A DNA stretch of 32,860 bases from assembly GCA_038844785.1 (NCBI GenBank), contig JAWBRA010000017.1, positions 1 through 32,860 of the forward strand. Direction: 5' to 3'. The notes under the pieces were generated by a model. It did not search any database and had not been told where the DNA came from. It worked only from the letters and a program-made list of their open reading frames with translations. Within the stretch, counting starts at the first letter, position 1, and the number at the start of each line of letters is the position of its first letter. This DNA is from Candidatus Caldarchaeum sp. GTDB taxonomy: Archaea; Thermoproteota; Nitrososphaeria_A; Caldarchaeales; Caldarchaeaceae. Position numbers and translations under genes: made by a program. Positions 1-3,041 of the stretch are shown here, piece after piece.

Positions 1-2
1 CG

Positions 3-239
3 TACGCCGACTTCAGTAAGGGAATCACGAAGCTAAAAAACTATTTTGGACCCTTCAAAGTAGATGGAAGGAAAAAGGGTAAGAGGAAGATATTCAGCGG
101 GGAAGCTCGTAAAGCCTTAGAGATGCTTACGATGGCTTTAAAAGGAACTGCGATGATAACAGCCAAAAACCAACTACAAACAATCGAGAAAATCAGAGAG
201 ACGTTGTCAGGAGAGAGGCTGGAGGTCATACCGGCTTAG
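3..239 (+). CDS. 3' end of a probable IS110-family/Nop-domain-like transposase (truncated by the window edge)
   Basis: Not in the ORF track. Open frame from 3 to TAG 237-239: YADFSKGITKLKNYFGPFKVDGRKKGKRKIFSGEARKALEMLTMALKGTAMITAKNQLQTIEKIRETLSGERLEVIPA. The DF...L..Y.G...basic loop...R.AL spacing resembles the IS110 C-terminal domain. A structured non-coding end follows. Confidence 0.5.
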   Translation, partial: YADFSKGITKLKNYFGPFKVDGRKKGKRKIFSGEARKALEMLTMALKGTAMITAKNQLQTIEKIRETLSGERLEVIPA

Positions 240-382
240 ACAGCAAAGAAAAACCCCAAGCCGGTATGACAAATTTTTTAACATGTATGGGTGTAAAACC
301 CGTACATGACACCTAGTTTAACATACCGGCCTCTCTCTTACAGGGGTTCTCAGGTGCTGTCTTGTTGGGATGGCCTCCAGCC
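217..382 (+). ncRNA. Long rod-like structured RNA with a symmetric guide-like internal loop (candidate bridge/seek/tigRNA-like RNA)
   Basis: Nested helices 217-229/370-382, 238-245/355-362, 252-257/343-348, 260-268/322-330 and 282-292/298-308. Non-WC positions are G-U on the + strand. The 13x13 internal loop (269-281/309-321) carries ATGAC-N9-AACAT twice. Confidence 0.65.
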
Positions 383-393
383 AAACCCTCCCC

Positions 394-411
394 TTATTTT
401 TTCCTTCTTTT
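394..411 (+). terminator. Archaeal-type oligo-T terminator after the structured RNA
   Basis: TTATTTTTTCCTTCTTTT lies 12 nt after the base of the long hairpin. Confidence 0.45.
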
Positions 412-479
412 GGTTTCTGTGTTAACCGTGTTTTATTTAGGCATATTCTTTACGATGTTTTTTGGATAGCGTCAGCAGC

Positions 480-487
480 TTTTTAAC
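480..487 (+). promoter_or_regulatory. TATA-like box upstream of the C/D-box-like sRNA; also the candidate element junction/target site
   Basis: TTTTTAAC lies about 25 nt upstream of the C box at 512. Confidence 0.4.
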
Positions 488-506
488 TAGGTTATCTATT
501 GGTTGT

Positions 507-566
507 ACGGGATGATGACGAACGTCCATCTTGAGCTGTGATAGGCGATGGGCAGTCTGACCAACC
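507..566 (+). ncRNA. Box C/D sRNA-like gene
   Basis: C box ATGATGA 512-518, 12-nt guide 519-530, D' TTGA 531-534, degenerate C' GTGATAG 538-544, 12-nt guide 545-556, D box CTGA 557-560. Flanks GGTTG 501-505 and CAACC 562-566 are complementary. Ends are approximate. Confidence 0.7.
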
Positions 567-1660
567 TACGCTAAAGATGTGTCCAACAAAGTGACGTCTG
601 TCGACCCGTCCTCAGAATATGTTGCGAAGACACGGTCGGGGTAGAGAAGCGAGAGGTATGAGAATGCGCGTGCGGCTGAGGAGGGAGATGACCTAAAACC
701 ATCTTCGACAAGCTTGTAAGCCGCGGCGAGGCAGAGGACGTCAAGCCTAACCCTACCCAGAACCCTGTTGAGGACCCTGTACACCTCAGTCAACGTCTGG
801 GCTTCAACATTCTGCGTAGGGTGTTTGAGAGAAAGCACGGATGGCGCGAGATAGTTGAACAACGCTTGCTCAAGCTTGTCACGCGGCTTCTCCAGCACAA
901 CCTCCAAATCACGAGAAAGCTTCAAAACCTCAAGCGCTGCGGCGTATCTCCCCCTTTGCGCTCTCTCCAAAAAACCTAGGTCGATAAGCCATTCCAGCCT
1001 AGGTGGGACAGCATGACGGTACTTGGCATACTGCCGGCTACGTATCCAGTCAGCTTTCGAACGGTATGTCAAACGTGTTTCCCTAAACTTCAAGGCTTCC
1101 TGAAGCTCTGCGTTGATGGACTGCCGCATCTTATCCGATGGGTTTTTCAAGGCACGTTTCAGAGCCTCTGGGTAGATCTCCTCCATGACTGTTTCCATGG
1201 CTTGTTGGCGGGAGAACACACGGGTTTTTAAAACCCAGCGGACAATCTGGCCTGTCATGAGGAAATCTTTGATCAACAATGTTTGGGTGAACAGAAGCTT
1301 CTCCACGCTGTTGAGAAGGAGGGCGGAGGACAGTTTTGCAGTGCTTTCCCCAGCTACGTGACGTTTCAGAGTGTATGACGAGCTTAAGCATGTGTAGACC
1401 GCGCCAAACTCGCCCACCTTCCCCGTTCTTCTGTCGTAGAAGCCGAGCTGGGAAGCCAGTTTCACATAGTTGCGGGCGTTAACCTCATTCCTCAGCAGCC
1501 CGGGCATCCTGTCTCCTACATCGTCTTCCATAGACCGGCATGTCTCCAGCAGAACTGATGCGAGATAGTCGGGAGACCTTGCTGCACCGTCTTCAAGTAT
1601 GCAGGCTACAAGCTTGAGGTAGCCAAGCCTGCAGGCGTCGCCGTGCAGTTCAAAGATCAT
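566..1660 (-). CDS. Hypothetical 364-aa helical protein with winged-helix-like segments, coupled to the methyltransferase
   Basis: Long ORF starting 1 nt after the MTase stop. wHTH-like segments NYVKLASQLGFYD and PRLEWLIDLGFLER..RGRY. No catalytic motif recognised. Confidence 0.75.
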   Translation of the reverse strand: MIFELHGDACRLGYLKLVACILEDGAARSPDYLASVLLETCRSMEDDVGDRMPGLLRNEVNARNYVKLASQLGFYDRRTGKVGEFGAVYTCLSSSYTLKRHVAGESTAKLSSALLLNSVEKLLFTQTLLIKDFLMTGQIVRWVLKTRVFSRQQAMETVMEEIYPEALKRALKNPSDKMRQSINAELQEALKFRETRLTYRSKADWIRSRQYAKYRHAVPPRLEWLIDLGFLERAQRGRYAAALEVLKLSRDLEVVLEKPRDKLEQALFNYLAPSVLSLKHPTQNVEAQTLTEVYRVLNRVLGRVRLDVLCLAAAYKLVEDGFRSSPSSAARAFSYLSLLYPDRVFATYSEDGSTDVTLLDTSLA

Positions 1661-1661
1661 C

Positions 1662-2834
1662 CTACACCAGCCTCCCCCAAGCTAAGAACCTATCCCTAAC
1701 GTCGGGCTCGCCCTTGCTAAGCACCAGAATTCTTTCCTTTCCCACGCCCTGCCCCCTCTTAAGATACATCAGATACTTGCGACCCTTTCTAATCCCGTCG
1801 CTGATGACGGTTTTGGCTGTGAACCCTGCTTTCTCAGCGGGGTTGACTAAAAGCTCAGCCATGTCTACAACACGTCCGCCAAGCCGTACCTCGCCGACAA
1901 CCAAAACACAGAACCTATCATCTTTGAGCAGGCGATACATTTCGCTCAAGGCCTTTTCCATGAACCTGACGTATTTCTCCACAGATTGTGTTCCGAAAAG
2001 CTTTCTCCCAACTTCACGGTAGTCGTGTCCGAGAAACCATAGCCTAAGCCAGTTATCCCAAGCGTATGTCTGGATGTTAAAGTATGGTGGGGAGGTGACG
2101 ATGAGGTCGACGGATTCGTCCGCTAACGGAAGCTTTAGCGCGTCTGTGTTGAAGCAAGCACCTTTCACAGGCGGAAGACCATCCGCCAAAACCATCTCAG
2201 CCTTCCGAAGCAGGCATGCGAGAACGTTTCTGACCGGTTTCTTCAACCTGTGATGTTGAGCATATCGTCTAATGTAGCCCGGAGCCATGGAGAAAGAATG
2301 GCTGCATGGGAGGCTCAGGCTTATCTCAGAAGACCCATGTAAAATTCCCAGCATCAACGCTTTGACAAAGTTTGAGACATCGTCTTCAGCCTGCAGAAGC
2401 AGCTCCCGTACAGCTAGGATTTGCTTGAGGGTTTGGGGGTGGAAGAAGACTCGAACGTCTTCGTCAACGTCGTAGGTTGAAACGGTGTCAGGCCTCATCA
2501 GCTTAGAGGCTTCCTCAACCCAGCGTCTAACTTCTCTGAGCGTGGCAGGGTTCACCTTAGCGCGCGTCACAACATAGGCTTCCGGAGCCAGGTCGTTTCC
2601 AACCCCAACACGTCCAGCCAAACATGCCTCGAGGGGTGCTGTCCCCTTCCCTGAAAACGGGTCCAGCACGATCTGACCCCTGTCGGAAAACTTTTCAACA
2701 ACCCATCTCGCCAGAGCGGGTGGGAAAGATCCTGTCCTCGACATTATGCGGTGGAGCGATGAGCCCCAGTTCTTTCCAGCAAGCTTCCATGAATCGGCAA
2801 TCTCGCTGCTTAGGACGTATGTGACCTCCCTCAT
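1662..2834 (-). CDS. Amino DNA methyltransferase, probably N4-cytosine
   Basis: SAM-binding motif I VLDPFSGKGT near the N-terminus. Catalytic motif IV LIVTSPPY; SPPY is typical of m4C MTases. Confidence 0.9.
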   Translation of the reverse strand: MREVTYVLSSEIADSWKLAGKNWGSSLHRIMSRTGSFPPALARWVVEKFSDRGQIVLDPFSGKGTAPLEACLAGRVGVGNDLAPEAYVVTRAKVNPATLREVRRWVEEASKLMRPDTVSTYDVDEDVRVFFHPQTLKQILAVRELLLQAEDDVSNFVKALMLGILHGSSEISLSLPCSHSFSMAPGYIRRYAQHHRLKKPVRNVLACLLRKAEMVLADGLPPVKGACFNTDALKLPLADESVDLIVTSPPYFNIQTYAWDNWLRLWFLGHDYREVGRKLFGTQSVEKYVRFMEKALSEMYRLLKDDRFCVLVVGEVRLGGRVVDMAELLVNPAEKAGFTAKTVISDGIRKGRKYLMYLKRGQGVGKERILVLSKGEPDVRDRFLAWGRLV

Positions 2835-3041
2835 CGGAAAACTGCGGCATGCCCATGCCTCGCTTTATCCGTTGTCTCTCACAGGCTGCATGCTATTCCC
2901 TCATTATCCTCAAAGGCAGCACCGACGTAATTCATCGGTATTATCTGTATGGTTGAGGGGTTTTTGCGAGGATTTGGATGCGGCTGTCCGAGAAAACAGT
3001 TAACTAAAATATGTCCTCTTACATTGTTTTAGAACGCCGGT

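Follow-up and report, generated by a model that had tools for sequence, protein, structure and literature searches.

A dual-guide RNA and an IS110/TasR-like gene in Caldarchaeum: a probable RNA-guided mobile element at promoters and tRNA genes

What kind of element occupies the start of contig JAWBRA010000017.1 of Candidatus Caldarchaeum sp. (assembly GCA_038844785.1), where the last codons of a truncated gene run into a strongly folded, repeated RNA? The window analysed here is the whole stretch of 32,860 nucleotides (nt), contig C17 of the source genome G000 (1.74 Mb, 57 contigs), and it was compared with its relatives in 31 related genomes including G000 (protein census) and in 76 genomes of the order (pattern search for a tRNA-aimed subfamily). 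Homologues of the window's proteins bear the names Candidatus Caldarchaeum or Nitrososphaerota in their sources. With a probability of about 0.8, we read window 1-479 as the right-hand portion of a mobile element that is directed by RNA to specific sites and uses one RNA loop to read both strands of a 16-18-bp site (features in Table 1). The RNA fold, its covariation, the variability of the guides, the identity of guides and junctions and the presence of filled and empty sites are established below. The original prediction, made from the letters alone, had described here an IS110-like protein tail of 78 codons followed by a structured plus-strand RNA with two guide-like segments and a T-tract; that observation is confirmed, frame and T-run included, and its interpretation is supported in the main points.

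The guide RNA and its insertion site

The direct repeat that had been singled out, ATGAC-AAATTTTTT-AACAT at 266-284 and ATGAC-ACCTAGTTT-AACAT at 306-324, is present exactly as described and forms the two sides of a large symmetric internal loop. Window 200-420 (+) folds into one rod of -95.3 kcal/mol, compared with -59.5 +/- 4.7 for shuffled sequences (z -7.64, with 0 of 200 shuffles equal to it), and the fold of the minus strand is weaker (-89.5, z -6.63). The order within the RNA is outer stem, small invariant 6x6 loop, middle stem, large symmetric loop and apical hairpin, and all copies in three sequence subfamilies have this architecture. The prediction of a single large symmetric loop therefore stands for the large loop and not for its being alone, the near-invariant 6x6 loop being a second, smaller one.

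Automatic capture of homologous RNAs by their end motifs was too loose, yielding 309 candidates that were later filtered to 30 (17 from G000 and 13 from 10 other genomes), and covariation was scored on these against the window structure with five in-loop pairs left out. Paired cells amount to 88.4%, compared with 31-44% when the partners are slid, and both sides change in more than a third of the pairs (counts in Table 1). Compensatory cells number 95 versus 20-36 in slid controls and 38.8 +/- 7.7 in shuffled ones (0 of 500 shuffles reach 95), and the covariation score is 0.212 versus at most 0.071 with slid partners. G-U pairs are frequent (columns 17/168 in 25 of 30 sequences, columns 27/156 in 16 of 30) and so fit an RNA of the plus strand, as had been proposed. 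The 9-nt loop segments vary from copy to copy and the handles that flank them are kept, so the expectation that stems would covary while the segments differ is borne out. An Rfam E-value scan of window 1-3000 gave no match on 217-382.

Nucleotides 1-8 of guide A followed by the reverse complement of nucleotides 1-8 of guide B read AAATTTTTAACTAGGT, the guides of the window copy being AT-rich. The related genome G007 has a continuous locus whose upstream part resembles G000:C45:8346-8953 (95% identity) and whose downstream part resembles window 477-1660 (85%); since its two halves lie on different contigs in G000, the locus is interrupted there. The left junction, AAATTTTTAA at G000:C45:8944-8953, reads gcgtAAATTTTTAA up to the junction and gagttg beyond it, and the right junction in the window reads cagcagc and then TTTTTAACTAGGT. 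The site rebuilt from the two junctions is again AAATTTTTAACTAGGT, matching the guides at 16 of 16 positions, and the uninterrupted sites of G007 (AGATTTTTAACCAGGT) and G004 (AAATTTTTAACCAGGC) match them at 14 of 16 each. The junctions overlap by up to 7 nt (TTTTTAA), with a range of 3-7 nt around the boundary between the A and B half-sites, as nucleotide runs make the length ambiguous. Insertion took place in the TATA-box region of a gene resembling a C/D-box small RNA (sRNA) at window 508-562, about 25 nt upstream of it.

Among the 13 window-type copies, the guides of 4 agree with their right junction over 13-14 nt with no more than 1 mismatch, compared with 1 of 156 non-cognate pairs. Searching the contiguous guide 18-mers against the whole of G000 at up to 3 mismatches gave chance-level matching, a tRNA-Ala match excepted. 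An initial flank test that used both 9-nt halves on unspliced DNA, in which 3 of 20 copies stood out, is superseded by the intron-aware comparison in the 8 + 8 register.

tRNA genes as targets of a sister subfamily

A sister subfamily is aimed at tRNA genes. Its handle pattern occurs in 23 copies in 7 of the 76 genomes (the reversed-pattern control finds 0), and in 23 of 23 copies guide A joined to the reverse complement of guide B corresponds to tRNA positions 21-38, with 12 anticodons represented. This reading spans the 3' strand of the D-stem, nucleotide 26, the 5' strand of the anticodon stem and the 7-nt loop, with T at 33 and a purine at 37. In 14 of the 23 copies the tRNA gene downstream (about 45 nt past the T-run) matches the 18-mer with at most 3 mismatches, a level reached by 46 of 492 non-cognate guide/tRNA pairs; the best matches are 18/18 in one copy and 17/18 in six, and guide B is the exact complement of positions 30-38 of the adjacent tRNA in several copies. 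The proposed relation between guides and flanks thus holds for the rebuilt window site and for these tRNA genes alike. Judged by such comparisons of guides with flanks, the element inserts at the site that its guides specify, the TATA-box region in the window copy and tRNA 21-38 in the sister subfamily.

Twelve of these 14 matching tRNA genes carry an interruption. Ten of these interruptions are inserts of 25-31 nt located exactly between nucleotides 4 and 5 of the guide-A site (tRNA 24/25), and the remaining two (G004:C52 and G017:C86) are doubtful, the script having split off only 12-13 nt. The inserts are related to each other across different tRNAs, and the 18/18 match is to a tRNA-Thr(GGU) gene with such an intron in a related genome. 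G000:C9 and G004:C39 share about 99% identity over about 1,050 nt and differ only by a 30-nt insert at the guide site plus 1 nt. At the other end of the element, tRNA 5' fragments are joined to the left-end module and end 2 nt beyond the boundary between the half-sites.

In G000 an AT-rich hairpin intron of about 30 nt at 24/25 is present in tRNA genes at C2:73614-73718, C3:27433-27537, C3:86250-86355, C9:13828-13932, C50:6325-6430, C47 ~2013-2120 and C2 ~83150-83294. ARAGORN mislabels intron-bearing tRNAs and calls spurious giant introns; for example, CAT or TTT tRNAs are called Arg-TCT or Asn-ATT with the intron put at position 35. At G000:C24, about 24322 minus 460 nt, an element left end abuts an apparent 24/25-intron 3' end and tRNA positions 25-31, which suggests insertion into, or recombination with, a tRNA gene that already bore the intron. 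Four near-identical tRNA-Gln(CTG) genes (C1:89155, C26:20628, C33:14604 and C35:13246) are also present in G000, and three of them follow a copy of the third RNA subfamily at a distance of about 110-190 nt.

Insertions of this type have been described before. Sugahara et al. (2012; PMC3293823) described an insertion of 1,868 bp in Ca. Caldiarchaeum subterraneum, where it stands between a 5' fragment of tRNA-Thr(GGU) and an intron-bearing tRNA-Thr; it contains a repeated non-coding 545-bp region "a" followed by an 813-bp open reading frame (ORF) "b" and is present in six to seven copies per genome. According to the accessible text of that paper, filled and empty tRNA-Thr(GGU) loci exist, an intron is gained at 24/25, the junctions overlap by 3 nt, "b" was called a putative recombinase by a machine-learning classifier, integration after the model of the pNOB8-type plasmid integrase was proposed, and the intron was suggested to protect from re-invasion; the same text has no RNA, guides, IS110/TasR fold, other tRNA targets or non-tRNA targets. 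The likeness extends to an ORF of about 270 amino acids, an upstream repeated region of about 450-800 nt and insertion at about tRNA 24-27 that brings an intron, and by the paper's description the 2012 insertion appears to belong to the same family as our element. Our searches for earlier work turned up no paper connecting bridge RNA or IS110 to Caldiarchaeum or to tRNA introns, though supplementary tables on TIGR-Tas may list the family. The insertion has been known since 2012, and, as far as our searches show, the guide RNA, the protein fold and the programmable targeting of many tRNA genes and of promoters are not in print.

The protein, its relatives and a possible mechanism

The element protein is about 285 amino acids long and the window encodes its C-terminal 78. 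It starts at a GTG codon (M-G-R-R-F-Y-x-D-V-H) about 27 nt downstream of a TTATAAA box, and all 15 copies that have the N-terminus share this segment. A single-sequence search of PDB with the protein returned coiled-coil noise only. A profile of 29 diverse members matched PDB sequences of TasH (E 4e-4, in the Nop-like part) and of the IS621 transposase (E 0.023). An AlphaFold2 model of an intact copy on contig C14, built from a 48-sequence alignment (predicted local distance difference test score 93.3, predicted template-modelling score 0.87), was compared with PDB by Foldseek, where the first match is TIGR-TasR (9mty, E 3.8e-7, template-modelling score (TM) 0.62, 295 columns). Next come ISCro4 and IS621 (E about 1e-5, TM 0.59-0.63, about 295 columns), matched like TasR over the full length, and TasH matches the C-terminal part only. 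All 13 chains matched at E <= 1e-3 are TasR, TasH, ISCro4 or IS621. By this model the protein would consist of a RuvC-like domain of the DEDD type, a coiled coil and a Nop-like domain, an architecture common to IS110 recombinases and TIGR-TasR, and the assignment to IS110-like or TasR-like proteins made from the tail alone holds for the profile and for the full-length model.

Acidic residues D8, D31, D55 and D100 are conserved in 92-100% of the 48 sequences, D100 being invariant and lying within K95-x-x-x-x-D100. Most members read K-S-D-x-N-D-A here, and the window's subfamily reads K-T/N-A-R/K-N-D, with Ala in place of the motif's first Asp. We take the helix motif K-S/T-D-x-x-D of the element protein to be comparable to a motif of IS110. 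Past residue 100 no alignment column has Ser at 50% or more, and the stretch in which the original prediction had missed the Ser-Gly wedge of IS110 is variable or deleted in several members, so its suspicion that the wedge is lacking was well founded. Together with the fold matches, the lack of a Ser-rich column describes an IS110/TasR-like fold without the IS110 serine.

The unit recurs about 30 times in G000, and the family is patchy outside it. Window 1-420 has 41 matches in G000, a looser scan counted the copies of the 3' tail motif (Table 1), and a tblastn search with the C53 paralog (276 amino acids) finds about 25-30 gene copies or fragments, many of them frameshifted or truncated at contig ends. 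In the census 15 of 31 genomes hold the protein, with 29 matches in G000 and 0-9 per relative, the patchy pattern expected of a mobile element. Several near-identical intact copies of the window's subfamily stand at different places in complete related genomes. A search of a protein collection gave 281 matches, all "hypothetical" or unnamed (none of 120 listed with a Pfam domain), and a scan of 1.84 billion cluster representatives gave 111 family matches.

The element can be compared with several known systems, among them the three (IS110, Tas and Nop5) between which the original prediction had supposed that it might be an intermediate. Like IS110/IS1111 elements (IS621, ISCro4), it combines a putative RuvC-like domain, a coiled coil and a Nop-like fold with a gene-adjacent non-coding RNA, the sides of whose internal loop would read two target strands, and with site-specific insertion. 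Unlike them, its protein has neither the conserved Ser nucleophile nor a significant Pfam or NCBIfam match, its junctions overlap by up to 7 nt, and it brings, at its right end, a substitute for part of the target gene; moreover, the IS110 bridge RNA has a target loop and a donor loop, whereas the element's 3' RNA has one variable loop and a second that is small and invariant. TIGR-TasR supplies the best structural match and TasH the top sequence-profile match. Guides of the TIGR-Tas systems, as far as the accessible texts describe them (PMC12045711; 10.64898/2026.09.09.750476), have dual spacers, and their stem-loop type carries two guides of about 9 nt, one per DNA strand, flanking a hairpin; an overlap of such units with the gene's 3' end is possible, and dead TasR proteins act as repressors. 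By sequence our element is alike, with guide A sense and guide B antisense to adjoining target stretches. It differs in having a single unit per gene and no tandem array (one copy, on contig C4, has a partial 3' duplicate only), and in that the unit itself is multi-copy, inserted at its own specified site, and aimed at host tRNA genes and promoters.

Archaeal box C/D small ribonucleoproteins (Nop5) share the Nop-like C-terminal domain with a coiled coil and the arrangement of two guides beside conserved handles; unlike them, the element has a guide A that is sense to the tRNA, a duplex DNA target and retained N-terminal acidic residues. The TnpB and IscB omega-RNA nucleases (IS200/IS605) are likewise transposon-borne and RNA-guided, with a guide that relates to the element's own insertion site; their fold is unrelated to that of the element protein, and they have one guide, situated beyond the end of the element. 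Vaysset et al. (2024; PMC11213020) linked IS110 recombinases to Nop5 and, in the accessible part of their paper, did not find this domain make-up beyond IS110 recombinases, Nop5 and Prp31, inferring an extinct archaeal clade of IS110, or else an older ancestor, as the source of Nop5.

A mechanism can be proposed in outline. The rod would be formed by the 3' end of the mRNA or by a separate transcript, and the protein would bind it, the large internal loop presenting two guides of 8-9 nt. Guide A, being identical to the target's top strand, would pair with the bottom strand, and guide B, complementary to the adjoining top-strand stretch, would pair with the top, so that both strands of the duplex would be read. 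The right end of tRNA-aimed copies would bring a replacement promoter, a tRNA 5' exon and an intron of about 30 nt that splits the guide-A half-site. The substitute promoter and exon would let an essential tRNA gene survive the insertion, and the intron would then block re-insertion and so confer immunity. Insertion itself might proceed by strand exchange or by a staggered cut followed by joining or repair. With the serine missing, an exchange like that of IS110 would have to use another nucleophile; a staggered cut of the TasR kind would fit the fold and the polymorphism in the intron alone, and would explain the target fragments at the left end less well.

How non-canonical archaeal tRNA introns arrive "remains open" in the accessible text of a 2026 preprint (10.64898/2026.10.13.758758), and an element that carries a readable address for the intron site makes that question testable. 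Our broadest proposal is tentative, and we would sooner bet against it than for it as a whole: that these introns are installed by a serine-less relative of IS110 and TasR, an RNA-guided integrase with a single dual-guide loop, which would be the agent of "tRNA intron transposition" and a still-living archaeal lineage that ties IS110 recombinases to TasR nucleases and Nop5. Were the integrase reading true, that agent would be one long sought. The element would also be a compact (about 285 amino acids), thermophilic, RNA-programmed DNA inserter with a single 16-18-bp dual-strand guide, which, in view of that guide and of the missing IS110 serine, would make it a mechanistic variant of bridge recombination. 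An archaeal family that has active-site residues and no serine is in addition a candidate for the gap between IS110 recombinases and Nop5.

Contrary observations, alternatives and minor features

Several observations weigh against the reading as an RNA-guided mobile element. The protein has no match to the Pfam models DEDD_Tnp_IS110 or Transposase_20 at E <= 10, Pfam Nop is likewise unmatched, and the NCBIfam IS110 model NF033542 gives E 0.069 and 12.3 bits versus a cut-off of 140, so that of the family checks the original prediction had proposed, the structural ones (TasR and IS110 folds) turned out in its favour and the domain models did not. An equivalent of the IS110 nucleophile was not found in the alignment past residue 100, and the Ala at the third acidic position may weaken the RuvC site in the window's subfamily. 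On the DNA side, agreement with the copy's own downstream flank is poor in 8 of 13 window-type copies, and 9 of the 23 tRNA-aimed copies, eight of them in G000, have 4-8 mismatches to theirs; every tRNA-aimed ORF in G000 is broken or truncated by a contig end. The nearly identical C9/C39 pair is distinguished only by the intron, both loci having the element. Contig C45, past a left-end module of about 190 nt that is repeated about 19 times, runs into a unique gene of 313 amino acids that is not the element ORF, and the two junctions of the window copy are therefore not tied to one intact element; perhaps recombination between copies has detached the left junction from the rest, or the assembly conceals the link. 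The RNA-library runs X13 and X14 contained contig pieces of related copies only and give no evidence of transcription or RNA ends.

A doubtful but substantial alternative is an RNA-guided homing nuclease in place of a transposase: like TasR, the ribonucleoprotein would cut the uninterrupted target (an intron-less tRNA allele or promoter), and the host's homologous repair would copy in the element, the intron or both. Three observations agree with this: TasR, the best structural match, is a nuclease; the Ser nucleophile is absent; and G000:C9 and G004:C39, each of which has the element upstream, are distinguished only by 1 nt and the 30-nt intron at the guide site. The intron's place between nucleotides 4 and 5 of the guide-A site agrees as well, TasR being reported (PMC12045711) to cut beside the 5th spacer base. 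Against it speak the tRNA 5' fragments directly at the element's left end and the 5' exon duplicated in the clones of 2012 (PMC3293823), both of which suggest that integration took place at a defined crossover; and repair from a donor with the 5' exon next to the intron would copy the intron and not the upstream element. For the window's subfamily alone one could suppose instead a "dead" TasR-like protein that binds DNA under RNA guidance and represses the adjacent promoter, given that its third acidic residue is lost, that window-type guides resemble TATA boxes, that the promoter matched by the window guide lies 25 nt ahead of the sRNA-like gene and that catalytically dead TasR proteins repress transcription (10.64898/2026.09.09.750476, accessible text). 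We consider this improbable: the promoter match is explained by the insertion itself, filled and empty forms of the locus exist, and the intact near-identical copies of the subfamily are dispersed over different places in complete related genomes.

Two further ideas fare far worse. That the rod is a DNA palindrome independent of the protein (a repeat like a miniature inverted-repeat transposable element, or a terminator hairpin) beside an unrelated repeated gene would suit the good folding on both strands and the partial copies that have no ORF nearby; it is disfavoured and barely credible, in that the G-U pairs are strand-specific and accompanied by compensatory changes, the stems are kept while the loop segments vary, those segments match the junctions, and the RNA follows the ORF even in subfamilies of about 30% protein identity. 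A box C/D-like guide for tRNA modification or processing, with guide B antisense to the anticodon loop, would draw on the Nop-like C-terminal domain and on the exact complementarity of guide B to adjacent tRNA positions 30-38 in several copies. Guide A, being in the tRNA sense, cannot pair with the tRNA; for window-type guides the match is to promoter DNA, the RuvC-like domain shows conservation of its acidic residues and the Rfam C/D families are unmatched on window 217-382, and we regard this explanation as extremely unlikely. The RNA-guided mobile element remains our preferred reading, and the positions of its parts in the window are collected in Table 1.

Table 1. Parts of the element and its right junction in the window
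Feature	Position	Strand	Remarks
Element protein, C-terminal 78 amino acids + stop	3..239	+	gene truncated by contig start; 64% identity to C-terminus of full-length C53 paralog
Structured guide RNA, rod of four to five helices	217..382	+	overlaps last ORF codons; z -7.6, covariation 19/51 pairs
Small internal loop, 5' side AAGAAA	246..251	+	near-invariant within family
Guide A AAATTTTTT	271..279	+	sense = target top strand; nt 1-8 match target
Guide B ACCTAGTTT	311..319	+	antisense to target top strand; nt 1-8 match target
Small internal loop, 3' side CTCAGG	349..354	+	fold + family comparison
Conserved 3' tail CCTCCAGCCAAACCCTCCCC + T-run (398-403), likely terminator	374..403	+	31 copies in G000 at <=6 mismatches
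Right-end segment of inserted DNA, T-run to junction	404..479	+	homology to uninterrupted G007 locus begins only at window 477
Right junction, target remnant TTTTTAACTAGGT	480..492	+	= guide A nt 4-8 + reverse complement of guide B nt 1-8, 13/13

The C/D-box-sRNA-like gene next to the junction (508-562, +) has weak matches to archaeal sR families (E 0.4-2, under the gathering scores), and it is conserved together with its promoter in at least five related genomes. Beyond it lie two adjacent ORFs, 566-1660 (-) and 1662-2834 (-), of 364 and 390 amino acids; in the translation of the second, a ...VTSPPYFN... motif resembles DNA methyltransferases, and the pair may presumably be a restriction-modification system. 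The 313-aa ORF that follows the left-end module on the other contig (G000:C45:9177-10118, minus; L102:2332-3273) is either cargo or a product of rearrangement.

Some copies of the element have another layout. Those at G000 C11:10646-10993, C22:27113-27387 and C57:5076-5341 and at the G004 locus L039 lack the sequence corresponding to window 211-277, and with it guide A and the rest of the rod's 5' half; their ORF tail is joined straight to the apical hairpin. At G000:C4:13882-14281 (-) the 3' part and tail of a full RNA are repeated in tandem behind it. An unrelated repeat family of about 250 nt (76-83% identity) occurs at G000:C14:29147-29404 and about 12 other places, near the element and outside it.

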